64,000 nt of DNA from Candidatus Liptonbacteria bacterium (GCA_023244895.1 JAHFLL010000001.1:681802-745801), one strand, 5' to 3'. Positions 9,294 to 43,170 are shown, counted from the first letter of the stretch. Notes: a model not told the origin generated them from the sequence alone. Numbers and translations are program-made.

Positions 9294-10595
9294 TTATTGC
9301 TCCGCCGGTCTTTTGGCTAAAACTAACTTGAGAGTCATGGTCTTGTCCCCTCTTCTTATCTCCAATGAGATCTCGTCCCCTATGCCATAATTGGATATCA
9401 AGCTGCCCAGAGAACGTTCCGGGGTAATTTTCTTGCCATCCAAGGAAAGAATAATGTCCTCCGCCAGAATACCAGCCTTTTCCGCGGGCGAGCCGGGCGC
9501 CACCCCCGGACCATCCGCACTCCCCCTCACCAGCGCCCCATAGTCCACGGGTAGCTTTTCTTTTTCCGCGACAGCTGCCGTGACGGCCATATAGCGCACG
9601 CCTAAGTAGGCAGACTGTATCTCGCCGGTTTTTTTGACGGACGCAATGTCCCGTTTGGCGTCGTTAATCGGAATAGCAAAACCGATATTTTGTGCGCCGG
9701 AGGCCATGGCGGTGTTTATGCCAATAACCTCTCCCTTTAAATTAAGTAGTGGGCCGCCGGAGTTGCCCAGATTGATAGCCGCGTCGGTTTGAATAACACC
9801 GTGGATGGTTTCCGTACCCATACCCGGACCGGAAGCCTGGACCGTGCGCGAGAGACCGGAAATGACGCCAACCGAAACGGTATTGCGATATTCTCCCAGG
9901 GCGTTCCCGATGGAAATCGCGGTCTGACCCAATTCTATACTGTCCGAATCTCCCAACTCCACGGGAGTTAAACCGATTTTATCTATTTTTATGACTGCCA
10001 AGTCCTTGGCTGGGTCGCGCGCCAAAACCTTAGCGTCATACTTCTTGCCGTCGTTCGTAAAAACCGTGTAGGTCGCCTTGGTGTCCGCGACCACGTGTTT
10101 ATTGGTCAGAATTAAGCCATCCGCGGAGATAATAAAGCCACTGCCCCCGCCCACTTCCTGCAATTTAGAGCCCTGTTCGCATGCTTGCTGCTGAAACTGC
10201 GGGATATTGCCAAAGAATTGCTGGAACTCCGGAGGTAGGTCAGAGAAAGGATTAAGCGGGCTTGTTTGGCAGTTTTCTAGAATAGGCACATTTTTGGAAA
10301 CGGTAATCGCGACTACCGCTGGGGAGGCTTTTTTGACTGCCGCGATAGTGGCTTTTTCATAGTCCAGAGCCGGCTTATAAAGAGGAACTTCCTCTGCCTT
10401 TTTAGATTCATCTTGCTTCAAGACCGGCCCACCCTCCGAGCCTGGCACGGAGACCGGCGCCATATTGTCTTTTATACCTTGCCAAAGATTTCCCCAAAAA
10501 CCCGCCTTGACCTGGGGCGCGAATAGTATTGCAACCAATAAGAAAACCGCGACCAACCAGAAAAACTTAATATTTTTATTATTAGGTTCGTGCAT
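9294..10595 (-). CDS. HtrA/DegP-family periplasmic serine endoprotease with a PDZ domain
   Basis: Trypsin-like catalytic motifs including TDAAINLGNSGGPLLN; C-terminal PDZ-like region; N-terminal TM anchor. Confidence 0.9.
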   Translation of the reverse strand: MHEPNNKNIKFFWLVAVFLLVAILFAPQVKAGFWGNLWQGIKDNMAPVSVPGSEGGPVLKQDESKKAEEVPLYKPALDYEKATIAAVKKASPAVVAITVSKNVPILENCQTSPLNPFSDLPPEFQQFFGNIPQFQQQACEQGSKLQEVGGGSGFIISADGLILTNKHVVADTKATYTVFTNDGKKYDAKVLARDPAKDLAVIKIDKIGLTPVELGDSDSIELGQTAISIGNALGEYRNTVSVGVISGLSRTVQASGPGMGTETIHGVIQTDAAINLGNSGGPLLNLKGEVIGINTAMASGAQNIGFAIPINDAKRDIASVKKTGEIQSAYLGVRYMAVTAAVAEKEKLPVDYGALVRGSADGPGVAPGSPAEKAGILAEDIILSLDGKKITPERSLGSLISNYGIGDEISLEIRRGDKTMTLKLVLAKRPAEQ

Positions 10596-12150: not shown

Positions 12151-12714
12151 CTACAGGAAGATGATCAGTGTGCAGACCACCACCCAGACGAGCAGTACGA
12201 CGAAGTGCGTGAACTGCTCCTCCTTGTCAGGCTCATCGGCTTCGTACTCCCGAACCTTCCCTCCATCGTGAATGTCCCTTTCCTCCTTCAGAACCCGCCT
12301 GGGGATGCAGTTCTTGTAGTAGGAGTAGGTCCAGATCACGAAACCCACGAGTAGGAGGGGCACGCCCACCAGAAACTGAATCAGGTCGGTGCCGATCACC
12401 TTCCAGGCGATGAGGATCATAGTGAACTGCCCCACGCCGGTCTTGCTGAACTCGTCGGCCTGCTTGGTAAGCGCGCCGAGCGAGCCGTTCACAGCCTCGC
12501 CCACTTCCTTGCCGAGGCCGACCCACTTGCCGTAGGTCTCGATCCTGCGTTTGAGGTTGTCCTGCTCCACCGTCGCGATCTGCGAAGCGGTGAGTTGGCT
12601 CTTGGGAACAGAGACCATCTCCTCCTGGCCCGGTGCGGTCTGGGCCAGTACCGGCTGGACAAACCCAGCCAGAACTACGAACGCGACGAGGACGAACAGC
12701 AGTCTGCGCATCAC
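12151..12714 (-). CDS. GC-rich orphan ORF. Predicted exported protein with a signal peptide, a roughly 75-aa soluble domain and two C-terminal TM helices
   Basis: 187 aa; N-terminus MMRRLLFVLVAFVVLAGFVQPVLAQ; C-terminal hydrophobic helices; local GC clearly above the flanks. Confidence 0.55.
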   Translation of the reverse strand: MMRRLLFVLVAFVVLAGFVQPVLAQTAPGQEEMVSVPKSQLTASQIATVEQDNLKRRIETYGKWVGLGKEVGEAVNGSLGALTKQADEFSKTGVGQFTMILIAWKVIGTDLIQFLVGVPLLLVGFVIWTYSYYKNCIPRRVLKEERDIHDGGKVREYEADEPDKEEQFTHFVVLLVWVVVCTLIIFL

Positions 12715-12882: not shown

Positions 12883-13437
12883 TTATGACTTCCCAAACCT
12901 GACCTCCTTCATCTCCCCCGTCTCCCGGTCGGGAATGAGAAACGCACCCTTCTCTCTATATATATCATATAGCCTCTTAGTCAGTTCTACATCTTTGAGA
13001 CAATATTCCTTCAGCTCCTCAAATCTGCGTTCGTCGTACATCTTAATGGCTTCTGAGCCATGCCCGGTTTTAGCCTCCCCTAAATTCGCCTCCGCGAGGC
13101 GGCTTAAACTGATACGCCGTCCGGTAACAAACTCTATTTTATCCAGCAGATCAACCCGTTCCTTCCCAAACAAATCTAGGCCCACTTTCAGCCTATTAAA
13201 ATGATAGTTCAAGACCGGAATATCGTAGCGATTACTACTGAAGCCAACCAGCGTGTCTGCCCTGTTAAAGTGTTCCGCCGCCAGCACCAACTCATTCTCA
13301 TTAAAATAAGAATATTTATCGGTTTCATATTCATAGATACCCACGCCAGAAATTTTAAGGCGCGCGAAATTATTCCAACCCACATCCGGGTCGGTAAAAA
13401 AGTTGGCTGTCTCAATATCAAATACTAAAGTTTTCAT
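12883..13437 (-). CDS. DEDDy-type 3'-5' exonuclease (DnaQ / YprB / RNase_H_2-like)
   Basis: Exo I motif LVFDIETANF; Exo II motif GFSSNRYDIPVL; Exo III motif YCLKDVELTKRLY; 184 aa. Confidence 0.75.
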   Translation of the reverse strand: MKTLVFDIETANFFTDPDVGWNNFARLKISGVGIYEYETDKYSYFNENELVLAAEHFNRADTLVGFSSNRYDIPVLNYHFNRLKVGLDLFGKERVDLLDKIEFVTGRRISLSRLAEANLGEAKTGHGSEAIKMYDERRFEELKEYCLKDVELTKRLYDIYREKGAFLIPDRETGEMKEVRFGKS

Positions 13438-25886: not shown

Positions 25887-26804
25887 ATGGGGTTAATGTC
25901 TAATCTGAAGGAGCTGGTACAAGATTATCTGAACTACCTGGAGATAGAAAAGGGGCGCTCCCCTCGCACCCGCGAGAACTACGAGCACTATCTCGCGGAC
26001 TTTATGGCCTACGCCAAAATCTCCTCCCCCAAAGACATTACCGACCGCCTGGTGCGCGAATATCGCTTGAATCTCGCACGGCGGGATATCAAAAAAATCA
26101 GCCAGAACTACTACACCATCGCTCTGCGCAACTTTCTAAAATATCTGGCACGGCGGGACGTTGTCTCTCTCCAGCCGGATAAAATTGAGCTGGCGAAAGT
26201 TTCCCGCGCGCAAATAGAAATATTGGAATATCAGGATTTAGAAAGGCTGCTCCAGGCGCCCCAGGGCGGAGACTTGCGCTCTCTGCGGGATAAGGCGATT
26301 TTGGAAATGCTTTTTTCAACCGGCCTGCGCTTGGCGGAACTGTGCTCTCTGGAGCGATATCTGAATTTGGAGCGGGGAGAATTTACGGTGCGGGGCAAGG
26401 GCGATAAGTTGCGGGTGGTTTTCTTATCCGACCGCGCCAAAAAAGCTATTAAGCAATACCTGGACAAGCGCACCGACGCGGAGCCGTATCTCTTCGTGAG
26501 TCTTTCTAAAATTGCCAAGGGCTCCAAAAAGGAGCCGAAGGTGCTGGGCAGAATAACCCCCCGGGCGGTGGAGCGGGCGGTGGAGCACTGGTCCAAGGTG
26601 GCGGGCATTCCCAAGCATATTCATCCCCACCAGCTACGACACAGCTTCGCGACCGATCTTTTAATGAACGGGGCGGACCTACGCTCCGTGCAAGAGCTCC
26701 TGGGTCATGCCAATATTTCTACTACTCAAATCTACACCCATCTAACCAACAAGGAACTTAAAGAGATCCACGAGGCCTTCCATGGCCAAAGGAGGAAGAA
26801 GTAA
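25887..26804 (+). CDS. Tyrosine site-specific recombinase of the XerC/XerD family
   Basis: C-terminal catalytic region HQLRHSFATDLLMNGADLRSVQELLGHANISTTQIYTH (R...H-x-x-R...Y); N-terminal SAM-like domain; extended -10 tgtggtagaat upstream. Confidence 0.9.
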   Translation: MGLMSNLKELVQDYLNYLEIEKGRSPRTRENYEHYLADFMAYAKISSPKDITDRLVREYRLNLARRDIKKISQNYYTIALRNFLKYLARRDVVSLQPDKIELAKVSRAQIEILEYQDLERLLQAPQGGDLRSLRDKAILEMLFSTGLRLAELCSLERYLNLERGEFTVRGKGDKLRVVFLSDRAKKAIKQYLDKRTDAEPYLFVSLSKIAKGSKKEPKVLGRITPRAVERAVEHWSKVAGIPKHIHPHQLRHSFATDLLMNGADLRSVQELLGHANISTTQIYTHLTNKELKEIHEAFHGQRRKK

Positions 26805-28884: not shown

Positions 28885-29496
28885 CTACTTTTTCGCTAGC
28901 GCCACGCCTTTATACATAAAAAGAAGCGGTCTGCGCTTTTGGGGAAAGGTTTCTAGCTCCGTGATTTTGAAACCCGCTTGCGAAATGAGCTGGTCCACTT
29001 CCCTATCTAGATGGCACCCGCCCGACACGTACCCGAAAATGGGCGTCAGCCACTTTTGCCACTTCGCCGTGAGGCGCCCGGGAGATTTTCCGTGCTCAAT
29101 AAAAATAAACTTCCCGCCCGGCTTAAGGACTCGGAAGATTTCTTTAAGCGCGAGCTCGGGGCGAGGAATACTGCACATGCTCCAGGTGGAGACAACGGTA
29201 TCGATCGTATTTTCCGAGAGAGGAATATTCTCCGCCGAAGCCTTGATGTACTCAACCGGAAAGGAGACTTCTTTAATCCTTGTCTCCGCGAGATTGTATA
29301 GCTCTAAGGACGGGTCAAGCGCGTAAAGCTTCAAGATGCCCCGATAGTGCGGAAGATTGAGACCGGAGCCGAAGCCAACCTCTAACACCCTGCCCACGGC
29401 CTGACTCACCACCCCCGGCCGGAGCTTCTCCGTCTCCTCTCTACGCATAGTGGAGTTAAGCAACCGAGGCAGAATGTATTTTTGATAGGGGTTCAT
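28885..29496 (-). CDS. Class I SAM-dependent methyltransferase (Methyltransf_11-like)
   Basis: Motif I VLEVGFGSGLN; post-I motif LKPGGKFIFIEHG; 203 aa. Confidence 0.8.
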   Translation of the reverse strand: MNPYQKYILPRLLNSTMRREETEKLRPGVVSQAVGRVLEVGFGSGLNLPHYRGILKLYALDPSLELYNLAETRIKEVSFPVEYIKASAENIPLSENTIDTVVSTWSMCSIPRPELALKEIFRVLKPGGKFIFIEHGKSPGRLTAKWQKWLTPIFGYVSGGCHLDREVDQLISQAGFKITELETFPQKRRPLLFMYKGVALAKK

Positions 29497-29618
29497 CTTC
29501 TATGATAAAAGTATACGAAAATTAAGAGCTTATTGTAGAGTTCGTCCGGAATGGTTTGAAGTACCTAAGCCGAAGTCAGGTAAAAGAAAGAATATGGTTT
29601 ATTATTCTGTGAAATAAA

Positions 29619-31145
29619 CTACAGATTTTTTACGGTTTGTATCAAGCCTGCAATTGAGTTTTTTAACTCAATATCCGTATAATTAAAACTCTGCATCGTT
29701 TTATTTTCAGGATGATGCGTTTTATTTCTTATGAATGTTGGCAAGGTAACATCTATTTCTCCCTGGGACACTCCTCCGTACTCGGGATTCCACTTTTTAG
29801 TGGCTGCTATTTTTGTTTGTAAATAATCCTTCTCAAACACGGTTTGCTTACCCCTGCTATCGGCATCTGATTGATCAGTGGCCTTACTGATGAAAAGTTC
29901 GTGCAAATAACCATATAGCTCATCGTGAAATTCTATCGTGGGCATATCGTAAGCAAAATAATTAATTTCTCCCCAAGATGGGCTCCAAGAAGGGAAAAGC
30001 CCCCATCCTTTAGATCTTGCATCCTCAATCTTGATCTTATTATTCACGTCTCTAGTAAATAGCAGGAGCGTGGCATTCTGGGAAATGGCGCCCTTAAACA
30101 AATAGGGTGAGTGGGTAGAAACAATTATTTGTTTACTTTTCGATTCTTCAAGTAATAACTCCAACAGCTTTTCTTGTGCTTTGGGGTGAAGATGTAGTTC
30201 TGGTTCGTCAATTAAATAAACAATGCTGCCTTTTGAAGCTCCTGCTATGTTTTTTAGTATCAAAAGAGTCAATATTATCTCTACGCCAGAACCTAAATCC
30301 CTGACATTAATTTGAGACAAGGTATTTTCATCTCGTAAAGCGAAAAAGGCCGCGGAGAAAGGATGTAGAATATTTAAAAGTTCAATTTTAATTTTCTCAA
30401 ATTCGTCTTTTCCAAAAAACTCTTTTAACTCTTTAGTGGTCTTTTGGCTAAAACTCTTATTTGCAATCGCATCAACATTTTTAAAATATTCCCCTGCAAT
30501 ATTCTGAGAAATCATATTTATATTCTCATCTGTTAAATTCTTAACAAATGTCCAATTCAGATCATCACAGATTTTTTCGAAAGTTGTTTTATAGTTTCCA
30601 GTAGTAATTTGTCTTGTCCTATTTTTATCGAAAAAGAATATATTCAGTTCGTCGCTATCGTTGATTCTCGATTTGGAAAATATTTTATCTCTCCCATCAA
30701 TCTCTTTCCCCTGCGAACCATCTCCTTTTATATAATTGGCTTCTGTAATAAAGGAGTTATTTATTTGAAAAGGACTAGATAACAAATTTCCTCTTTCCTT
30801 GGTATCCCTACTCTTGGCCTTAAAAGAAACGCCCTTTGCTTTAAAACTCCAATCCTTATAAAAATCAATTCCCGAACCACAACCGAACTCATCACTCTCA
30901 GCTTCGACAAGTATCTCTTTTTTGAAATCAAAGAAATCGTTAATGCTTAATTTATTTTCCGCGGAAAAACTATTAAGCGTGAGATAATTAACTGCTTCAA
31001 GGACAGTAGTTTTTCCATTTCCATTCTCTCCAATGAGAATATTTAGACCGCTTCCACGATTTCCATTTGGAACATTAAAACTAATCGGTTCATTTTCAAA
31101 ACATCTATAGTTTTGAATCTTTAATTTTTTTATGAATATGGCCAT
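29619..31145 (-). CDS. AAA_21/AAA_15-type ABC-like ATPase. It has an OLD/RecF-like N-terminal ATPase head and a C-terminal roughly 150-aa domain of unknown type. Candidate defence ATPase
   Basis: N-terminus IKKLKIQNYRCF; Walker A motif GENGNGKTT; Walker B / D-loop motif VYLIDEPELHLHP...STHSPYLF; gene sits in an AT-rich island. Confidence 0.75.
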   Translation of the reverse strand: MAIFIKKLKIQNYRCFENEPISFNVPNGNRGSGLNILIGENGNGKTTVLEAVNYLTLNSFSAENKLSINDFFDFKKEILVEAESDEFGCGSGIDFYKDWSFKAKGVSFKAKSRDTKERGNLLSSPFQINNSFITEANYIKGDGSQGKEIDGRDKIFSKSRINDSDELNIFFFDKNRTRQITTGNYKTTFEKICDDLNWTFVKNLTDENINMISQNIAGEYFKNVDAIANKSFSQKTTKELKEFFGKDEFEKIKIELLNILHPFSAAFFALRDENTLSQINVRDLGSGVEIILTLLILKNIAGASKGSIVYLIDEPELHLHPKAQEKLLELLLEESKSKQIIVSTHSPYLFKGAISQNATLLLFTRDVNNKIKIEDARSKGWGLFPSWSPSWGEINYFAYDMPTIEFHDELYGYLHELFISKATDQSDADSRGKQTVFEKDYLQTKIAATKKWNPEYGGVSQGEIDVTLPTFIRNKTHHPENKTMQSFNYTDIELKNSIAGLIQTVKNL

Positions 31146-31165
31146 GCATTTAAATAAATTGCAAG

Positions 31166-31663
31166 CTATTTAGCCATTTCGCATTTACCAGAAGATACTA
31201 TCGCTCCCGTTCCGAGTGTCGCGATATCAACAAATTCTCCTTTATCGCCTAAGGCATCTCCAGTGACAACCTTGAACATCATTGCTTGACCTTGCAATGG
31301 AGTAAATTGTGTAAATTCTCCAGAAATGTGTACCTCAACTGGATATGAATCACATCCTTTAGTATCACACCTAAAATAGGTTCCGCTCTCAGTTCCATAA
31401 TCTACGAAATAATAAGTTGCTGGAGTTGAAGCCGTACAACTACCCCCACCACAATCAAACCGACTTGTCGGAAAACAAGAAAGCTCGGCGATATCTGCCA
31501 TTGCGGAATGTTGTGAGGATTCTTCATATGCGATCCTCAATGACTCGGTGGGCGGGATGATTACAGTTGTCGTTTGAACCTTTTCTTTATTTCCAAAAGC
31601 AATATAGGAAAAAATACCCAATAGAATTACAAGCATGCCAATAATTAAATTTTTCTTTTCCAT
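31166..31663 (-). CDS. Small exported Cys-rich protein (165 aa; N-terminal TM or signal sequence, 8 Cys)
   Basis: N-terminus MEKKNLIIGMLVILLGIFSYIAFG; downstream domain with CFPTSRFDCGGGSC...CDTKGCDS...GKCE. Confidence 0.55.
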   Translation of the reverse strand: MEKKNLIIGMLVILLGIFSYIAFGNKEKVQTTTVIIPPTESLRIAYEESSQHSAMADIAELSCFPTSRFDCGGGSCTASTPATYYFVDYGTESGTYFRCDTKGCDSYPVEVHISGEFTQFTPLQGQAMMFKVVTGDALGDKGEFVDIATLGTGAIVSSGKCEMAK

Positions 31664-31907
31664 ATGTTTGAAAATGTCCTTATTTACTTGGGTTCGAACT
31701 TGGAAATCTGGCGGAGAGGAAGGACGCTAAGCTATTCGAACGCACTCCAGTTCCTATTGTAGCCCCGCCGGATTGTTTGGCAAATATGGGGTCATTAAGG
31801 ATTATAGCCCTCTTTCGCTTTTCTAGTTTATGTAGCAATAAATTGTATCCTTTGCGTGAACCTTTTTGAGACGAACTGACACGCCCGGACATAATTTTCT
31901 GCGACGA

Positions 31908-34900
31908 TTATTCTAATTTCAACATCTCCTTTATCTCTAGCACGCACCGCGCCAAATCGTTTTGGAGTTGGTACACCCAAAATCGTTTGACTCGCCATCC
32001 GTGCATGATGAGATGCTGGTCTCGCTTCAAATCCGACAGTAAGCGGCCTCCGTCAATGTCGCGATGCCACATCTCACCGTCAATCTCAATATCAATCGGG
32101 ATTTCCGAATCAAGGACGGCGAGATCAAGGCGATATTGATATAGCGGGTACTGCGAGACGGTTCTGATACCTTCCCGCGCGAGGGCGTCATACAAAACTT
32201 CCTCCCATGGTGACTCAAATTTTCCTCCACTCTTGTTTTTGTTTTCCGGCTCCAGCTCCTCGACATACTGCACGAACTCTGAAAGGTGCGAGATGCCGGA
32301 TTGGGCGCAAGCTACCCTGTCGCCGACAATGTGCAACTCCGCCCTTGCACGGGTAATCGCGACATTAAACAGGTTTACCGTGCTCCCTAAAAATCCTAGT
32401 GAGCGTTGTTGAATTTTACGCGACACAACCGGAGAGAAAATCATTATGTCGCGTTCGTCTCCTTGATATTTATGCGCGGTATCAACCGTAAAATCCAGCT
32501 TCCGCAACTCCGCCGCGTCTATTTTTTGTTCTACCAAATCTCTGATTTTATTCGCTTGCTCTCGAAACGGCGTAACGACGCCAAGTGATACAGAGTAGTC
32601 GTCGCCGTGGGCGGAAATCCTGCCGATGATTTCTCCAATCAATACAACAATCGCCTTCGCCTCTTCCAGATTGTATGCGCTTCCGGCAGATGGCCGGACA
32701 ACCTCACCGACGACATTGTGCCATGTGAGAGCGTCGGGGTGTCCCGCACCGCGCAATCTACGATAATCCGTCCAGACGCTCAACTTGCCACCATAAAATT
32801 TCTTATTGGAAAAACCGATAATTTCGGCGCGGCTGCGGTAGTGTTCGAGCAAGTGAATGAATTTTGCCCCGGTTCCCACAACGCTTCGTGCAAGCTCAAA
32901 GAGCGAGTTTATGCTGTAAAGAAAACGTTGGTCGTCGGTTGAGGTTAGACTAATCTGCCGTTGTAACTGTTGATCGTCCACCCGATGCAAAAGCGAGATG
33001 TGCGTAAGCTGATTTGGATCGCCAACAATAACGGCTCGTTTCGCGCGATAAAGTAGTGGAATCGCGGACGCGATGTCGCACTGGGAGGCTTCATCAATAA
33101 TCACAACATCAACGGCTCCTGCGCTCAACGGAAGCGCATGACGGACAGATAGATTTGTAACTGCCATCGCCGGAAACGCTTTTACTACGCTCTTAAACAT
33201 TCTCTTGCGCTCATTTCTCAGTTCCTCCGCGAGCTCACCTCCTGTTACGTCGCCCTCCAGTCGGCGCACGATACTCACATAATCCGCAATATCGCGTCGT
33301 TCCTTGGGGCCGAGCGATTTTAAGCGACGTTTCATTAGCGCATCAACATATCTAACGCTAATGTCTATCGCGCGTTCTTTACTTTTTGTGATTCGCTCCC
33401 GTAAAACCTCTACTCGCGCTTCATTCTCGTTCTCTCGCACAATTCCCAAAAGCTCCGATTGATTATCAATCCATTTTTTTAATGCACGGCAAATCGTCAA
33501 AAGCTCGCGACAGGCATGGATAGAATTAAGCGAGAGGGGGATATCTTCAATCGGCGCAAGCGCGAGTAAAGATTTTGCCGTTTCTAAAACTCGCTTTTCC
33601 AGCGTGGAACCAAAAAACGCGAGAATGCGCGAGATAAAACTAGGCCCTTCGTCAACTTCTTTTACCAAACGACTCAACGAAATAAGAGAGGCATAAAACT
33701 CCTGTTTCCCCTCGATTTTTTGGTACGAATCGAGATTGCGAGAAATTGACGAGGGCAATTCCGCTCTAACAGATTCAAGCGTGACATCAAGACGACTTAT
33801 TCGATTCCTGCGGGCAAGGATGCGGAACAGCGATTGCTGTGCCTCTTTTTCTTCTGAGCGCACTAATTCAAGTTCCTTTTTGTACTCGCTGATTTCTCGC
33901 TCTAATGACTGGTTGTTGTAGCTTGAGGCACGTTCAATCGCCGACAAGAGCGCTTCCGCAAATTCAATCTCGCGTTCTTTCTGTCCGTATTTCAGAATGA
34001 CCGGCTCGGACTGAAGCCTCAATAATCGTTCGATAACAACATCAACCGCTTTGTGATTTTTACTTCCGAACAAGACGCTTTCATTACGAAGTAGTGCGTT
34101 AGCAATAATATTGAGAACAATTTGCGACTTTCCGGTTCCGGGCGGGCCGGTAATGACGCTAACCGTGTTGTTAAAAGCACTTTTTACCGCGCCTCGCTGT
34201 TCGTCATTCAATCCGGTTATTTCCAGCAATCCTTCACCATTATCCTCTTTAACTTCTGCGTTTCTATCAAGAATTACGCGCCATACATCATTAGGAACGG
34301 TCGTGTCTCGTAATTCGCTCAATTCTTGTTCTAGCCCACCAGTATATTTTGAATCTGCGCTCCGAAAAATAACGCCGAGAGGGAAAACGCCGCTCTCTGC
34401 TTTTAGTTCCGTTGTCTTTCCGCCAAGAATATCTTTTGAGAACGGAACCTCTTGTGGTAGAAGTTCGGCGAACGCACCCAAAATAATTTTGAGGTTCTGC
34501 CCCCTGTTTTTTTCATCGTCCCACGACTCTAAAACTGCTTCGGCTATTTGCTTTCTTTCCTCAACGCTCGTTAATAAACTTTTGTCTGTAAGAAAAGCAG
34601 AGTTGATTCTCGGTCTATCCGATTGCAAAATGAAAGCGTATCCGGTTTCTGTTTGAATAAGATCTATTCCAAAAATTAGAATGGGTTGAATGATCTGACC
34701 CGACCATCCTCGCCGCGATTGTCCAATTTGTTTTATGTGGCAAGGAAAGCCGTAGAAATACGAAAGCGGACTGCGACTCCATCGGGGACCACTGATGAAC
34801 GCTTGGATTTTTTCATTCTGCCCCTCAAATTCTAGCTTTTCTTTGCCGGACGCAATCCATTCTTTTTTCATCGTAGGCACCTGTAAAAACTCCACCCCCT

Positions 34901-35096
34901 CTTTTGACGAGTAGAGCGTAATTTCTCCGGCGTTCTCAACAGAAATGCACGAACCGTAATACTTGAGAAGTTTTTGCCAGCGCAAAGATGTCGGGTCGGT
35001 ATGAACCACCGGAGCTTCGTTTTCCGTTTTTCGCGCGATTGTCGTTCGCCTATATCCGCTCCGACCTCTGTATTTGTTGCGATAGTAGATTGCCAT
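31908..35096 (-). CDS. Large SF1 (Upf1/DNA2-like, AAA_11+AAA_12) helicase. It has an uncharacterized N-terminal domain of about 300 aa and a C-terminal DUF559/Vsr-like PD-(D/E)xK nuclease domain
   Basis: Motif I GPPGTGKSQ; motif II VIIDEASQ; VGDPNQL; YRSRAEIIGFSN; motifs V/VI VDTAHKYQGDERDIMIF; C-terminal RLDLAVLDSEIPIDIEIDGEMWH (DUF559-like). Confidence 0.8.
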   Translation of the reverse strand: MAIYYRNKYRGRSGYRRTTIARKTENEAPVVHTDPTSLRWQKLLKYYGSCISVENAGEITLYSSKEGVEFLQVPTMKKEWIASGKEKLEFEGQNEKIQAFISGPRWSRSPLSYFYGFPCHIKQIGQSRRGWSGQIIQPILIFGIDLIQTETGYAFILQSDRPRINSAFLTDKSLLTSVEERKQIAEAVLESWDDEKNRGQNLKIILGAFAELLPQEVPFSKDILGGKTTELKAESGVFPLGVIFRSADSKYTGGLEQELSELRDTTVPNDVWRVILDRNAEVKEDNGEGLLEITGLNDEQRGAVKSAFNNTVSVITGPPGTGKSQIVLNIIANALLRNESVLFGSKNHKAVDVVIERLLRLQSEPVILKYGQKEREIEFAEALLSAIERASSYNNQSLEREISEYKKELELVRSEEKEAQQSLFRILARRNRISRLDVTLESVRAELPSSISRNLDSYQKIEGKQEFYASLISLSRLVKEVDEGPSFISRILAFFGSTLEKRVLETAKSLLALAPIEDIPLSLNSIHACRELLTICRALKKWIDNQSELLGIVRENENEARVEVLRERITKSKERAIDISVRYVDALMKRRLKSLGPKERRDIADYVSIVRRLEGDVTGGELAEELRNERKRMFKSVVKAFPAMAVTNLSVRHALPLSAGAVDVVIIDEASQCDIASAIPLLYRAKRAVIVGDPNQLTHISLLHRVDDQQLQRQISLTSTDDQRFLYSINSLFELARSVVGTGAKFIHLLEHYRSRAEIIGFSNKKFYGGKLSVWTDYRRLRGAGHPDALTWHNVVGEVVRPSAGSAYNLEEAKAIVVLIGEIIGRISAHGDDYSVSLGVVTPFREQANKIRDLVEQKIDAAELRKLDFTVDTAHKYQGDERDIMIFSPVVSRKIQQRSLGFLGSTVNLFNVAITRARAELHIVGDRVACAQSGISHLSEFVQYVEELEPENKNKSGGKFESPWEEVLYDALAREGIRTVSQYPLYQYRLDLAVLDSEIPIDIEIDGEMWHRDIDGGRLLSDLKRDQHLIMHGWRVKRFWVYQLQNDLARCVLEIKEMLKLE

Positions 35097-35121
35097 AATT
35101 ACGAGCGAAAGTTCCTATTAG

Positions 35122-35208
35122 CGGAGAGGGAGGGAGTCGAACCCTCGAAGCCGGTTAAGGCTTACGCGCTTTCCAAGCGCGCGCACTAGGCCACTATGCG
35201 ACCTCTCC
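35122..35208 (-). tRNA. tRNA-Ser (anticodon GGA), a type II tRNA with a long variable arm
   Basis: Minus-strand sequence GGAGAGGTCGCATAGTGGCCTAGTGCGCGCGCTTGGAAAGCGCGTAAGCCTTAACCGGCTTCGAGGGTTCGACTCCCTCCCTCTCCG: 7-bp acceptor stem, anticodon loop TTGGAAA, T-loop TTCGACT, discriminator G, no encoded CCA. Confidence 0.85.
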
Positions 35209-35229: not shown

Positions 35230-35811
35230 CTAAAGCCCGATATTTTCAATCCTGGAAATTATCTCCGCCTCCTCTTCGCACCAGGGAGAATACGTGCCGG
35301 GCTTATTCCTTATTTCCTCCAAAAACTCCTGCCAGGGCACAGAGCGCACCGCCTCCACCTCCTCCGGATTGATAATCGGCTCTTGGTCCGAGAACCCGAT
35401 AAATATCGGGCAGATTTCATTTTCCATTACCCCATCTTTGGTAAAGCAGTAGCGATAAGGCGCTACTTCCTTCACTTCTATGCCCGTAAGTCCCAGCTCG
35501 TCTTTTAGTCTCCTTTTGACCGCCTCCCCTCTATCTTCCCCGGGCGAGGGATGCCCGCAACAACTATTGGACCAGACTAAGGGCCAGGTTTTCTTTTTAG
35601 AACTTCTTTGCTGGAGCAATAATTCTTTCTTGGAGTTAAATAGAAAAAAGGAAAAGGCGCGATGAAGGGGCGTCTGCACCCCGTGCACTAATGCCTTAGG
35701 CATAGTGCCAATTTCCCTATCATCCTCATCCACCAGAACGACCGACTCTGCCATTGTGTCGTCTGCCAGGTCCCCATTTTTACCGGGTGACTCCATTGCG
35801 CGTTGTTCCAT
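35230..35811 (-). CDS. idi: Isopentenyl-diphosphate delta-isomerase, type 1 (Nudix family)
   Basis: HRAFSFFLFN and WSNSCCGHP motifs plus Nudix box GEDRGEAVKRRLKDELG. Confidence 0.8.
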   Translation of the reverse strand: MEQRAMESPGKNGDLADDTMAESVVLVDEDDREIGTMPKALVHGVQTPLHRAFSFFLFNSKKELLLQQRSSKKKTWPLVWSNSCCGHPSPGEDRGEAVKRRLKDELGLTGIEVKEVAPYRYCFTKDGVMENEICPIFIGFSDQEPIINPEEVEAVRSVPWQEFLEEIRNKPGTYSPWCEEEAEIISRIENIGL

Positions 35812-37663: not shown

Positions 37664-38356
37664 TTAGCTAACTACTGTCCCCCTAAATTCTCGGCCCTTC
37701 ACTAATTTTTCAAAATTATCCAATTCCCGACCATCTATCACTATCGCGTTTATCTTTGCGCGCATAGCGAGCTTGGTTGCTACCGGATCTACCGGAGCAT
37801 GCATACCCGGATTCCACTTTGTCGGGATAAGCTTGCGGTATTCCTTCCAGCTCATTCCCTCAAATTTTTTGGCTTTGGGGTTTTTGACCGGATCGCTTGA
37901 ATACACAAAGTCCGGCTTGCCCGCTACTATCACTTCTTTTATTTTAAGCTTTTCCGCCATCGCAAAAGCGATATAATCCGTGGACCAGCCCGGATGCCAG
38001 CCGGAAGCGACGGTTATTTTGTATTTTAGTTTTTTGACCTTGTCCGCGCCATCCACCACCACCGGGTCCGCCACGTCCCGAAAAACGGTGCGAATAAGAT
38101 GAGCGTTCAACCTGGTCGCGTGAATACCCAGCCAATCTTTATCTTCGTTGGTAACCTTGGTGAGCGCGCTCGCCGCTTTCTGGTACTCGCGCGCGACTCC
38201 CCCGCCGCCTATAACCACCACTATCTTTTTGCCCGAACGTATCAGGGGTTTTATAAATTTCTGAAATCTCCTTAAAAACTCCACATTCACTCCATCCGGA
38301 CAGACTATTGAGCCACCCAGGCCAATTATTATTTCCGAACCAAATTTATATCTCAT
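37664..38356 (-). CDS. pyrH: Uridylate (UMP) kinase, archaeal type
   Basis: IIIGLGGSIV...VVVIGGGGVAREY and GWHPGWSTDY match archaeal PyrH (GGTHPGHTTDA); amino-acid-kinase fold. Confidence 0.8.
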   Translation of the reverse strand: MRYKFGSEIIIGLGGSIVCPDGVNVEFLRRFQKFIKPLIRSGKKIVVVIGGGGVAREYQKAASALTKVTNEDKDWLGIHATRLNAHLIRTVFRDVADPVVVDGADKVKKLKYKITVASGWHPGWSTDYIAFAMAEKLKIKEVIVAGKPDFVYSSDPVKNPKAKKFEGMSWKEYRKLIPTKWNPGMHAPVDPVATKLAMRAKINAIVIDGRELDNFEKLVKGREFRGTVVS

Positions 38357-40888: not shown

Positions 40889-41338
40889 CTAGAAAAATAC
40901 ATACCAAGAAAAGAAAAAATATATCGTAGTAACAGCCCAGAATAATATCCCATTGATAGCTGGCAGATTCGCTAGCGGAGGATTCTCTGGACGAACCATC
41001 TTTAGAAGACGAGATCTATATGCATAATGAATCAAGCTAATAATTATAAACCACAACAAGGGGCCAGATACTAAGTTAAATCCGATACCCAAATCACGGG
41101 CCACTTCAGGTCTAAAACCGATAAAAAGATACACTAACCGATACGCTAAATAAGTAGTTAAATTGCCCAAAAAATTTGAAATATTAGTTCCAATAATAAA
41201 AAATGCGATTGGGATAATGTTGGGATAAGTTTCGACGTTCATCGTCCTTATTTTAATCAGGTCTGAACGCTGCCAAATAACAAAAATGTAATATACGACG
41301 ACGAGGCACACCCAAACTGCGGCATAAATACTTACCAT
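40889..41338 (-). CDS. Small polytopic membrane protein; paralog 2
   Basis: Same conserved pattern as 39301-39852 (WQRSDLIKIRTMNVETYPN...). Confidence 0.55.
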   Translation of the reverse strand: MVSIYAAVWVCLVVVYYIFVIWQRSDLIKIRTMNVETYPNIIPIAFFIIGTNISNFLGNLTTYLAYRLVYLFIGFRPEVARDLGIGFNLVSGPLLWFIIISLIHYAYRSRLLKMVRPENPPLANLPAINGILFWAVTTIYFFFSWYVFF

Positions 41339-41342
41339 AAAT

Positions 41343-42683
41343 TTAAATATTGGTTGATTGTTTCTTAAATAGCCGGAAGACCATAAAACCCATCCCCAAG
41401 ACGACCAATACGAGGACCGTGGTCAGAAGCCAAGAGTAGCGCTCGCTAAATGGCCTCTCCAGCCCGGTGGGATATTTATATTGCTCGTTATCATGCTTGT
41501 TTCCCAGACTGAACTTCACCCTTGCGGAAGCGTCAAAATATTGCAAATAATTGTTTAGGTCATACTGCGCGTAGCGGGCGCCGGGATTGCCGTAGTAGAG
41601 CTTATAACTCTTCCCAACTTCATACGGGAAAATAGCCTTGCGCACCGTGCCATAAAGCGTGCCCTTCTCTATTTGAATGGGTTGATTGTCGCGGTTAAAG
41701 ATGGTCAATTTCAGAAAACGATAGTTCTGGTCCGGAAAACGCAATTCCAGCTTGTTGCCGGTAAACTTGGGCGTGCTATAGGAGAAGATAACGTCCCGAT
41801 TGGTAATTATGCTCCAAGCCGTGCCATCGTTCGTCCCCTCCAGCGCCACCTCCCTATTGAAATTAGTGCTGGGCGTCTCTAAAACCAAACGATTTGTCGG
41901 CAAGCCCTTAACTCCCATATCAAGAAGTATAGAGTTGGCCTGCCTGTCTTTTACTTCCGTCCGCTCCACAATCGGAACTTCATAAGAAACCTCTTTGCCG
42001 GCGCCATATGATTCGCGCGAGATGGTCGCGGAAACAATTCCGAGCGGAGCTTCGCCCTTGTCCGAAATCGTAATTCTCAAATAACGGTAAGTGGAGTCGG
42101 TATAAGACAAAGATGTATCGCGCGCCTTAAATTCCAAGGTGTAGTCGTAAATTGAACCGTTCGCAAGCGTAAACCAATTCGCCATATCCGAGCTGCCTTC
42201 CACCTGCATCTCTCGCCGGAAATTAGTGGAGGTAACGCTAAGCTCCACTCGGTTATGAATGAACCCTTCTGCCGCTAAATCTAGAACCAAAAAGGTGCTT
42301 CCTGCCTGGACGCCCTTGTTTAGAATTCTCGCGGAATGAGTCTCACGGGCGAAGGAGGGCGCCTCTACGTCCATCACATACGGTATTTCCCTCTCCCCCG
42401 ACATGATGCGCACATCACTCAAGTCCGACTTGGAACCGGAAAGGACCTCTCCGTCAAAAACAACCTCTCCAAAATCGCCCGATCCGCCACTCGCGGGCAT
42501 AAGTTCCTTTTCATACTTCCAGCCCGCCGAATCAAAATCTGCCAGGGCTGACGAACACGAAAACAAAAGAATCAGTCCTGCAAACAATATATTCCTAGTC
42601 GAACTCCCTGCCCAGTTTTTAAAATATTTCATTTTGTTGATTTTACAAATATTTATTAATTTACAATAGACCGAAAGTAACAA
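41343..42683 (-). CDS. Exported protein of 446 aa with a signal peptide and a C-terminal TM anchor; possibly DUF3999-like
   Basis: N-terminal signal with the lipobox-like LLFSCSS; C-terminal segment WLLTTVLVLVVLGMGFMVF; it sits next to a DUF2339-like gene. Confidence 0.55.
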   Translation of the reverse strand: MLLSVYCKLINICKINKMKYFKNWAGSSTRNILFAGLILLFSCSSALADFDSAGWKYEKELMPASGGSGDFGEVVFDGEVLSGSKSDLSDVRIMSGEREIPYVMDVEAPSFARETHSARILNKGVQAGSTFLVLDLAAEGFIHNRVELSVTSTNFRREMQVEGSSDMANWFTLANGSIYDYTLEFKARDTSLSYTDSTYRYLRITISDKGEAPLGIVSATISRESYGAGKEVSYEVPIVERTEVKDRQANSILLDMGVKGLPTNRLVLETPSTNFNREVALEGTNDGTAWSIITNRDVIFSYSTPKFTGNKLELRFPDQNYRFLKLTIFNRDNQPIQIEKGTLYGTVRKAIFPYEVGKSYKLYYGNPGARYAQYDLNNYLQYFDASARVKFSLGNKHDNEQYKYPTGLERPFSERYSWLLTTVLVLVVLGMGFMVFRLFKKQSTNI

Positions 42684-43170
42684 CTATGGTGTAAATCCAT
42701 GACTTAAAATACGGGATGCCCGGAATGAGCAACATGGCCAGGCCAATAAAGAAAAGAATGTTGTCCGACGGGGGGACAACTGGAAGAGGGAGATTATTAG
42801 ACAAAGGTTCTTTCTTTAGCCTAGCTCGCGAGGAAAGATGGATGATCAGGAAAAAAAACAAGATAAGCGGCATAGCGGCCATGGAATAATTAAGCACGCC
42901 TGATAGATAATCAATACCGTGATAACCCACTACCATAGTTAATAAGTTGAATCCTTCTCCTGAATATATAATGACTGATAATTTGGCTATTAGGCCCAAT
43001 AGAAAAGAATAGATTATGTGCTTAAGCATAAGCTCCCCAGGCCTTATATCTATCCCCTGCAGCCTAAGTCTTTTAAGCTCATCCCATTCTCTCCGCACAT
43101 AACATACAAGAAGGACATACAATATTAGGCGAATAAATGCGGAAAACCAAAGTATATATACCCACGCCAT
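42661..43170 (-). CDS. Small polytopic membrane protein; paralog 3
   Basis: YVRREWDELKRLRLQGIDIRPGELMLKHIIYSFLLGLI parallels paralog 1. Confidence 0.55.
   Translation of the reverse strand: MAWVYILWFSAFIRLILYVLLVCYVRREWDELKRLRLQGIDIRPGELMLKHIIYSFLLGLIAKLSVIIYSGEGFNLLTMVVGYHGIDYLSGVLNYSMAAMPLILFFFLIIHLSSRARLKKEPLSNNLPLPVVPPSDNILFFIGLAMLLIPGIPYFKSWIYTIVVTFGLL

Follow-up and report, generated by a model that had tools for sequence, protein, structure and literature searches.

A probable mosaic of insertions behind a tRNA-Ser gene of Candidatus Liptonbacteria, with a candidate ATPase-HEPN guard protein and a possible new family of tRNA-linked cassettes

Do genes of defence-like content that stand shoulder to shoulder behind a tRNA gene make up one defence system? 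The question is raised by a locus in a 64,000-nucleotide (nt) stretch of DNA from Candidatus Liptonbacteria bacterium (GCA_023244895.1, JAHFLL010000001.1:681802-745801), which was analysed at its full length and is referred to below as the window. Directly 3' of a tRNA-Ser(GGA) gene lie three co-oriented genes, encoding a helicase-nuclease of 1062 amino acids (aa), a small protein of 165 aa and an ATPase of 508 aa (Table 1). Open reading frame (ORF) calls, ARAGORN and Rfam all confirm this arrangement, in which a first-pass annotation had seen one undescribed three-gene defence module. The domains that it had named are there (in Pfam terms, AAA_15/AAA_21 in the ATPase and AAA_11/AAA_12, MTES_1575 and DUF559 in the helicase), and the defence-type content is real in the sense that the ATPase and the helicase are each found beside defence genes in other loci. 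The module has fared less well: the trio is not conserved, the very finding on which the annotation had offered to give up the idea. There is good reason for confidence that the three genes are instead independently acquired mobile genes stacked at a tRNA-Ser hotspot: a mosaic, not the operon of one system.

The simplest evidence is that of company kept. No homologue of the small protein or of the helicase was found by tblastn, up to 8 kb to each side, at any of 34 ATPase-homologue loci, which were taken from one-genome-per-species contigs, span 26-94% identity and include a locus (L009; handles of this form designate fetched loci) whose ATPase is 94% identical to that of the window. The small protein, with five distinct contexts, and the helicase, with five including the window, also occur without the other two genes, and the exact trio was seen solely on contigs with identical sequences.

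A second line of evidence lies within the locus itself. The first-pass annotation had found no repeat of the tRNA 3' end at the far border, and there is none; the repeat is internal instead, between the helicase and the small gene. It is the degenerate 40-nt relic of a displaced tRNA-Ser 3' part, with CCTCTCCGCCAGAT at 31706-31719, at the relic tRNA 3' end. Local alignment yields 12/13 identity between this relic and the 3' end of the window's tRNA; as a repeat proposed from local alignment alone it was rejected, because a 13-nt match scored no better than chance. The relic is convincing only via homology, in a multiple alignment with the tRNA-Ser 3' ends of four related loci (L006, L009, L012 and L046). 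The blastn matches run in the same register: window 31716-31178 corresponds to 7949-8486 of L006 with 86% identity, the match beginning in the last 8 nt of the L006 tRNA-Ser(GGA), and window 31719-31678 and 31723-31692 correspond to the tRNA-Ser(CGA) 3' end and flank of L009 and L012. L006 thus provides an uninterrupted reference for the junction of tRNA and flank. In the window, by contrast, the live tRNA-Ser(GGA) ends in ...CTCTCCGC, followed by TAATAGG, and runs straight into unrelated sequence, so that the helicase gene must have been inserted between the tRNA and its former 3' part. Since the relic lies between them, the helicase arrived separately from the small gene and the ATPase.

Two further details of the junctions bear on this insertion. 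The relic retains ...CCGCCA at its 3' end while the live tRNA gene does not encode CCA: the insertion of the helicase gene removed the encoded CCA. The 10-mer AATAGGAACT occurs exactly twice in the 64-kb window (0.15 copies would be expected), both times on the minus strand, and the helicase insert lies between the two copies. As arm-type or target-site repeats, they may belong to the vehicle of the helicase gene.

The locus would have been built in two layers. In layer 1, at about 31749-35120, a single-gene helicase-nuclease insert would have split the tRNA from its 3' part, which is now decaying; layer 2, at 29489-31748, would be a decayed tRNA-Ser cassette with the small gene and the ATPase as its cargo. 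The two layers also differ in composition. Low GC content had been ascribed to all three genes; compared with a background of 50 ORFs from the window (mean GC 0.491, standard deviation 0.047), it holds for the ATPase (GC 0.348, z = -3.0) and for the small gene (GC at third codon positions, GC3, 0.301, z = -3.1) but not for the helicase, whose GC (0.474, z = -0.4) and codon usage are host-like. Composition is, in other words, atypical over 29.5-31.7 kb (z about -3) and unremarkable over the helicase.

The locus has the marks of a tRNA-linked island, adjacency to a tRNA gene and a direct repeat of the tRNA 3' end (here an internal one), and the suggestion that its tRNA-adjacent site is an integration point is supported by relatives that hold differing cargo behind tRNA-Ser genes. 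L006 has tRNA-Ser(GGA), the small gene and a TIR-like gene, with neither helicase nor ATPase; L009 and L012 have tRNA-Ser(CGA), an HNH gene and the ATPase. How general is this site? A 24-nt pattern, TCCGCCAGATNNCCNANTTNGAAC, made up of the tRNA end and 17 nt of flank, is present on at least 120 metagenome contigs (L048-L167), a sample biased by the DNA patterns used for its retrieval. Among the matches listed, to which the following counts also refer, it stands at a tRNA-Ser 3' end in 83 of the 120 contigs, and the anticodons at these sites are GCT (32), GGA (20), CGA (16) and TGA (15). The pattern sites are an integration hotspot that extends across the Candidate Phyla Radiation (CPR). The cargo behind the flank varies, restriction-modification (R-M) genes being most of what can be assigned: C5 methylase, type IIG enzyme, EcoRI-type methylase and MvaI/BcnI endonuclease, with one pair read by eye as type III mod/res, and HNH genes and other ATPases besides. 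A large serine recombinase gene lies within 7 kb downstream in 22 of the 120 loci, and CI/LexA-like repressors are frequent as well.

The far end of the cargo is marked as well. In 43 loci it is closed, 1.8-6.8 kb behind the tRNA flank, by a conserved antisense ORF of about 55 codons, designated c3. That c3 is coding is indicated by the pattern of its variation, which is greatest at third codon positions (position entropies 0.42, 0.40 and 0.88, the third position varying twice as much as the others). Its 5' end overlaps a pseudo tRNA 3' end (...CCCGCCA), beyond which the sequences are unrelated; its product contains the motif ...FEPKKWLKF.DIDKSIQELRAIYKVHPEWFEVPKPKS... (an example is L109 4694-4858) and has no Pfam or PHROG match. 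It may be a small DNA-binding or excisionase-like module. The 'R..HPEWF' motif of c3 also recurs as 5-7 tandem repeats of about 55 aa in two large proteins, P0391 and P0362. One idea about the origin of c3, that it is the split C-terminal tail of a serine recombinase with the attachment site attP inside the gene, was prompted by recombinase ORFs that read through the flank into the antisense strand of the tRNA and by an L109 ORF that joins the flank peptide to c3. It was ruled out by a phmmer search of 1.84 billion proteins, in which c3 was never at a recombinase end and was found only at the C-terminus of 58-101-aa proteins and in the two repeat proteins.

The AT-rich segment of the window has both of these ends. 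Its right border is a truncated c3 remnant, found by tblastn with 12 c3 ORFs (E 1e-10 to 3e-13) and agreed upon by blastn to L006 and L009; it is convergent with the ATPase gene and lies 1 nt from the ATPase stop codon, a junction also present in L009. The segment 29489-31748 is, then, one hotspot cassette with a truncated right end. Its cargo is itself mosaic at the resolution of single genes: the flank and the small gene are L006-like (86%), the right part, which begins 10 nt ahead of the ATPase start codon and runs through c3, is L009-like (89% DNA identity), and L009 has an HNH endonuclease gene in the slot of the window's small gene, a pattern that speaks for horizontal transfer of the ATPase gene as well. 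The first-pass annotation was right that the interval contains no integrase, and the window holds no homologue of the serine recombinase or of the CI-like repressor; with c3 truncated and no recombinase left, the cassette is probably immobile. (A viral origin was also considered and set aside: the small protein and c3 are absent from IMG/VR, neither has a PHROG match, and the ATPase has one full-length relative on a viral contig, at 39% identity.)

Insertion at a tRNA 3' end with duplication of that end, variable occupancy, and cargo that consists mostly of R-M and other defence genes are familiar from P2/P4-type tRNA-linked islands and cargo hotspots. The cassettes described here differ from those islands in three respects: 1) they are 2-7 kb in length and usually without a recombinase of their own; 2) they have conserved ends, a flank of about 36 nt on one side and, on the other, c3 ending in the pseudo tRNA 3' end; 3) they stand behind four different tRNA-Ser isoacceptors. 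The AT-rich segment may represent an undescribed family of recombinase-less 2-7 kb cassettes that carry R-M and abortive-infection genes into CPR tRNA-Ser genes, and these cassettes, with c3 overlapping the right attachment site, may be moved in trans by the large serine recombinases of co-resident elements.

Table 1. Features of the tRNA-Ser locus (window coordinates unless residues are given)
Feature	Position	Strand	Basis or remark
Class I methyltransferase, housekeeping-like flanking gene	28885-29496		
Truncated c3 remnant (last 38-42 codons, no start codon)	29489-29617	+	right border of AT-rich segment
ATPase ORF, 508 aa	29619-31145	-	ORF call
OLD-type ABC ATPase head of 508-aa protein	residues 1 to ~375		
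Probable HEPN RNase domain of 508-aa protein	residues ~376-508; DNA 29622-30020	-	
Small-protein ORF, 165 aa	31166-31663	-	ORF call
Conserved flank GATTTCCAAGTTCGAACC...AAGTAAATAAGGACATT, cassette left end	31673-31708	-	follows tRNA-Ser genes in relatives
Relic of displaced tRNA-Ser 3' part, degenerate, 40 nt	31709-31748	-	T-arm, then ...CCTCTCCGCCA
AATAGGAACT copy 2, distal end of helicase insert	31749-31758	-	
Promoter-like site upstream of small gene, TTGCCA-16-TACAAT	31756-31783	-	consensus scan, 10/12 positions; weak evidence
Helicase-nuclease ORF, 1062 aa	31908-35096	-	ORF call
AATAGGAACT copy 1, tRNA side of helicase insert	35110-35119	-	
tRNA-Ser(GGA), intact, integration target	35121-35208	-	ARAGORN; Rfam tRNA model, 53.2 bits
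Isopentenyl diphosphate isomerase (idi), housekeeping-like flanking gene	35230-35811		

What do the separate genes encode? The greater part of the ATPase is readily placed. Pfam finds AAA_15 (8e-23) and AAA_21 (9e-20) together with SMC_N, AAA_23, AAA_27 and AAA_29; the best match among Protein Data Bank (PDB) structures is 6p74 (1.6e-17), followed by PtuA, AriA and GajA, as befits an OLD-type ATPase, and PADLOC returns NsnB, GajA, PtuA and AriA at about 1e-23 to 1e-26 (GajA 2e-24) and Old at 1e-21. The Walker A, signature, Walker B and H-loop motifs are intact, and invariant among homologues. All of the PADLOC and PDB matches stop near residue 380. The C-terminal ~130 residues beyond that point are nevertheless strongly conserved, with G392, E393, H407, R473, H478, P479 and E480 invariant down to 25% identity, and an AlphaFold model of residues 358-508 (mean confidence, pLDDT, 92.3) is mainly helical and not TOPRIM. 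Searches against Pfam and PADLOC (E up to 10 in each) and by PDB profile, whether with the full length or with this domain, gave nothing significant for it, and Foldseek found no match for the model in the PDB. Its motif I-R-N-x-x-H-H-P-E-N has the form R-x4-H (R473-x4-H478). The form R-N/H-x-x-x-H is typical of HEPN RNase catalytic motifs, and fusions of ABC ATPases with HEPN domains have been described as a class (Anantharaman 2013, PMC3710099). Of the six best Pfam matches below threshold among family members, three are, weakly, to HEPN families (Ribonuc_2-5A, HEPN_Apea and Cas_Csm6_HEPN). With fold evidence that is moderate, the C-terminal domain is probably a HEPN RNase, a claim made with somewhat less assurance than that of the mosaic.

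The alternative that fares best is that the C-terminal domain is not a nuclease at all, and that the protein assists or regulates restriction without being toxic, or is an SMC/RecF-like ATPase of the repair type; whatever nuclease is needed would then be supplied by a neighbouring HNH protein or restriction subunit. Against this, R473-x4-H478 and the adjoining P479-E480 are the best-conserved part of the domain, the motif has the HEPN form just cited and half of the best sub-threshold matches point the same way, and there are stand-alone plasmid copies of the gene with no partner nuclease (see below). We regard this alternative as unlikely, though not negligibly so, and proceed with the HEPN reading.

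The company that the ATPase gene keeps elsewhere is informative. The closest homologue comes from a metagenome-assembled genome (MAG) of Candidatus Paceibacterota, and other hosts are found among Patescibacteria, Bacteroidota, Ignavibacteria, Acidobacteria, Actinobacteria and Proteobacteria. Of 33 loci, at least 8 have the gene amid or next to hsdM, hsdS and hsdR, the stop codon of one gene frequently overlapping the start codon of the next (the order in L031 is hsdM, hsdS, ATPase, hsdR); type III Mod/Res genes are found at 3 of these 33 loci, an AlwI-type endonuclease at two, and an abutting HNH gene at four or five (L009, L012, L027 and L029 among them). A Pfam census of the 124 proteins encoded within two genes of the ATPase is headed by Methylase_S (9) and ResIII (8), with HsdR domains, N6_Mtase and HNH_5 at 5 each and GmrSD_N at 4. 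Stand-alone copies lie between insertion sequence elements on Klebsiella and Lactobacillus plasmids. Two of the 33 loci have Abi_C and GmrSD genes as well: in L016 and L032, both from Bacteroidales, the ATPase-HEPN gene is inside a type I R-M operon together with Abi_C (HEPN-type) and GmrSD genes, and such loci look like multi-layered embedded defence loci. RhuM-family genes are found near two other ATPase homologues.

On the HEPN reading, the protein resembles the anticodon nuclease PrrC and RloC. Both combine an N-terminal ABC-type ATPase with a C-terminal HEPN-type RNase and its R-x4-6-H motif; within the EcoprrI type I R-M locus prrC is flanked by hsdS and hsdR, as the gene is in some relatives here, and RloC stands alone, like the plasmid-borne copies. 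There are also differences: 1) the ATPase head is OLD/AAA_15/AAA_21-like (6p74, PtuA, AriA, GajA), and AAA_13, the Pfam family that holds PrrC and RloC, is not among the Pfam matches of the 508-aa protein; 2) the C-terminal domain has no detectable sequence similarity to theirs; 3) the Rad50-like coiled coil and zinc hook of RloC are missing; 4) in contrast with prrC, no R-M gene stands beside the ATPase gene of the window. The other comparison is with the systems that share its ATPase family: OLD/Gabija GajA, Septu PtuA/PtuB and PARIS AriA/AriB, the adjacent HNH gene of some relatives recalling PtuB. In the window's protein a helical HEPN-like domain replaces the nuclease module of the OLD family, and the window offers it neither a TOPRIM nor an HNH partner. 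It is not Gabija: the ATPase has no TOPRIM domain, and the neighbouring helicase, a separate insertion, matches GajB at 1.7e-4 only. Nor is it Septu: the NCBIfam PtuA model scores 70.5 bits against a cut-off of 500, and the window has no HNH gene.

If the protein works as PrrC and RloC do, its ABC ATPase head would keep the RNase silent and sense a sign of infection; a partner restriction enzyme that has been lost is one candidate trigger, and DNA ends or damage are another. The protein would then dimerise in a nucleotide-dependent manner and so assemble the R-x4-H active site, which would cleave tRNA or other RNA and abort the infection. The protein of the window would act alone, like RloC and, seemingly, the plasmid-borne homologues. 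In a wider frame, the 508-aa protein may be the founder of an undescribed family of restriction-system "guards" that spans phyla. Such a guard would unite an OLD-type ABC ATPase with a new HEPN-like RNase domain and be a convergent counterpart of PrrC; its genes lie within R-M operons of types I, II and III, in hosts that range from Patescibacteria to Proteobacteria.

The helicase-nuclease is a different matter. It combines a superfamily 1 (SF1; Upf1/DNA2-like) helicase (AAA_11/AAA_12) with a C-terminal Vsr/MTES_1575 PD-(D/E)xK nuclease (MTES_1575 3.7e-10, DUF559 2.3e-5), and its helicase motifs (Walker A GPPGTGKS, Walker B DEASQ) and Vsr-like nuclease motifs are intact; its N-terminal ~290 aa have no match at all. 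The SF1 helicase C-terminal half, with the Vsr/MTES_1575 nuclease where there is one, aligns well with Hhe, ProA, PDC-S37 and MkoC (PADLOC: MkoC helicase part 1e-64, PDC-S37 1e-56), but all scores are far below the family cut-offs. NCBIfam ProA scores 219 bits (7.6e-65) where 1500 are required, and Hhe 135 (1.8e-39) where 2000 are, both matches being confined to residues ~630-1058. Mokosh type II is likewise excluded, only the helicase region being aligned (248-962 of the 1136 positions of MkoC) and the nuclease being MTES_1575/DUF559 rather than phospholipase D (PLD). At 1062 aa the protein is far shorter than the 1550-1903-position models of PDC-S37, Hhe and ProA, and it has neither the DUF4011 N-terminal region nor the PLD nuclease found among Hhe, ProA and MkoC. 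By its sequence it is related to the Hhe/ProA/PDC-S37 helicase-nucleases, though short. Acting autonomously, it would use ATP to move along DNA, which its Vsr-like nuclease would cut; its novel N-terminal domain may act as a sensor.

Could it simply be a resident housekeeping repair enzyme of the lineage, neither mobile nor concerned with defence? Host-like GC and codon usage would fit, as would the presence of xseA beside its homologue in L043 and L047. But the helicase is 88% identical to that of L043 while pyrH is only 48% identical; a gene so much better conserved than pyrH moves horizontally, its host-like GC notwithstanding. Homology to the relatives covers essentially the ORF alone, and the gene is found in five different genomic contexts: in L046 a homologue stands behind two other tRNA-Ser genes, (TGA) and (GCT), beside a type ISP R-M system; in L047 it adjoins a serine recombinase gene and a ThsB-like TIR gene; and in L172 it is carried by an element that also encodes an EcoRI-type methylase, a GmrSD_N/HNH protein and a serine recombinase. 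In the window it interrupts a tRNA-flank junction that is intact in L006. The housekeeping explanation is accordingly improbable, and the helicase is better regarded as a mobile gene in its own right. The L172 element (GCA_964448295.1) deserves separate mention. It contains an XRE helix-turn-helix (HTH) gene and a helicase that falls into one cluster with that of the window at 90% identity (87.5% for DNA), the pair being flanked by G-rich direct repeats of about 35 nt, GGCGGAAGG..GGGTGTGGGGGGAATTCCGCCG, at ~9650-9700 and ~13225-13260, which suggests a different vehicle for the same helicase gene.

The small protein, for its part, has no Pfam family match. It has six cysteines (63, 71, 76, 99, 104, 161), not the eight counted at first pass, and all six are invariant in 37 homologues. 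In its structural model (pLDDT 82) an N-terminal transmembrane helix is joined by a short helical linker to an up-and-down beta-barrel of eight strands; as modelled, then, it is a membrane-anchored beta-barrel protein, and the six cysteines, with the positive charges ahead of the helix, suggest that the domain is extracytoplasmic and stabilised by disulfides. To assign it to the surface or to exclusion would be a guess. Its 118 homologues are 50-82% identical and have so far been found only on Patescibacteria-type contigs, those with names all being from Patescibacteria-type or unclassified bacterial MAGs, and what stands next to them changes from place to place. In L002 and L005 the homologue follows an XRE HTH gene (in L002 there are also serine recombinase genes just upstream); in L167 two unrelated proteins come after it, at least one of them membrane-bound-looking by eye; in L006 the gene is directly behind tRNA-Ser(GGA) and is followed by that of a 476-aa, weakly TIR-like protein. 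The window and L006 share the small protein at 82% identity but an M48 peptidase at 65%. The small protein rides cassettes with varied partners, is horizontally transferred, and has no specific partnership with the ATPase. The 476-aa protein of L006 (8506-9936), in the slot that the ATPase has in the window, matches Pfam CAP12-PCTIR_TIR at 3.8e-4 and a PADLOC TIR effector at 4.7e-6, and is a further defence-like cargo variant.

How secure is the mosaic? Several points weigh against it and against what has been built on it. The 34 ATPase loci were retrieved by way of two peptide motifs, and the sample is biased toward close members of the family. Neighbouring genes in the fetched loci were called by a naive longest-ORF method. 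Orthologues of idi and of the flanking methyltransferase gene were found in no fetched locus, so that no empty site (idi, tRNA-Ser, methyltransferase) was recovered and the outer borders of the island rest on homology breakpoints only. The RNase activity of the ATPase family and its role in defence are both putative. Lastly, the small gene and the ATPase gene are co-oriented, 20 nt apart and similarly AT-rich, and co-transcription or a functional link between them is possible.

This last point is what recommends a two-gene system in which the small Cys-rich membrane protein is the effector of the ATPase, in the role that HNH or TOPRIM has elsewhere. The two proteins are, however, never found together in other loci: unrelated genes come after the small protein in L006, L167, L002 and L005, and ATPase homologues do without it in every other context. 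The six invariant cysteines and the positive-inside N-terminus would, moreover, place the barrel outside the cytoplasm and beyond the reach of a cytoplasmic ATPase. The first-pass annotation correctly remarked that the ATPase lacks a TOPRIM or HNH partner in the window, but the exported protein that it proposed as a substitute is no specific partner. That the small protein occupies the HNH position is a coincidence of slot, since the same slot holds an HNH endonuclease in L009 and since it is a TIR-like protein that follows the small protein in L006. The two-gene system is, in sum, even less probable than the housekeeping helicase. As for a new three-component anti-phage system (ATPase sensor, exported or membrane effector, helicase-nuclease), it has co-oriented and tightly packed genes beside a tRNA and domain content typical of defence genes in its favour but is scarcely credible when the genes co-occur at 0 of 34 ATPase loci, when small-protein loci and four other helicase loci lack the remaining two, when a relic attachment site parts the helicase from the others, when GC is unlike between the genes, and when the exact trio is confined to contigs with identical sequences. 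The mosaic of separately acquired genes is the favoured reading.

Some features of the surroundings remain to be recorded. A 70-aa ORF at 31680-31892 was judged spurious: it has no family match, it occurs elsewhere among the fetched loci solely in an identical contig, and it overlaps the relic tRNA end. At 25887-26804 (+), 2.7 kb outside the interval, there is a XerC/D-like tyrosine recombinase gene; its product passes only the NCBIfam cut-off for archaeal XerA (235 against 220), falls under those for XerC and XerD, and is probably a chromosome-dimer resolvase rather than an island integrase. The UMP kinase encoded at 37664-38356 (-) is of archaeal type (TIGR02076, 196 bits where 158 are required; 57 bits with the bacterial model), in what is apparently a bacterial (Patescibacteria) genome. 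Two low-GC ORFs with no Pfam match, at 40889-41338 and 42661-43170 (0.364 and 0.404), lie among genes for DUF3999/DUF2339 membrane proteins, and an ORF at 12151-12714 has a very high GC3 of 0.835 (coordinates and values are paired by order). A DUF5671 gene is found in the vicinity of the island; it, the Paceibacterota origin of the closest ATPase homologue, the MAGs in which the small protein's named homologues occur and an 840-kb contig that carries the genes make a Patescibacteria (CPR) source very probable.

In kind, the components of this locus are known: a tRNA-linked defence hotspot, an ABC-ATPase/HEPN protein of the abortive-infection type, and a helicase-nuclease. The particular ATPase-HEPN family and the architecture of the CPR tRNA-Ser cassettes appear to be undescribed variants. 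That both are so at once, the 508-aa guard family and the cassette family, is put forward tentatively, as a possibility that falls somewhat short of an even chance.

Taking the locus apart prevents genes that are neighbours by chance from entering the catalogues as a new three-gene defence system, and gives something in return. In many phyla, a widespread ABC-ATPase/HEPN-like protein occupies the position of PrrC in restriction operons. Should it be an RNase, the principle that a suicide nuclease stands guard over a restriction enzyme as its back-up would extend well beyond one E. coli paradigm. CPR/Patescibacteria have tiny genomes and poorly known immunity, and we know of no cultured phage-host systems among them; the tRNA-Ser cassette hotspot could be mined for their defence genes.

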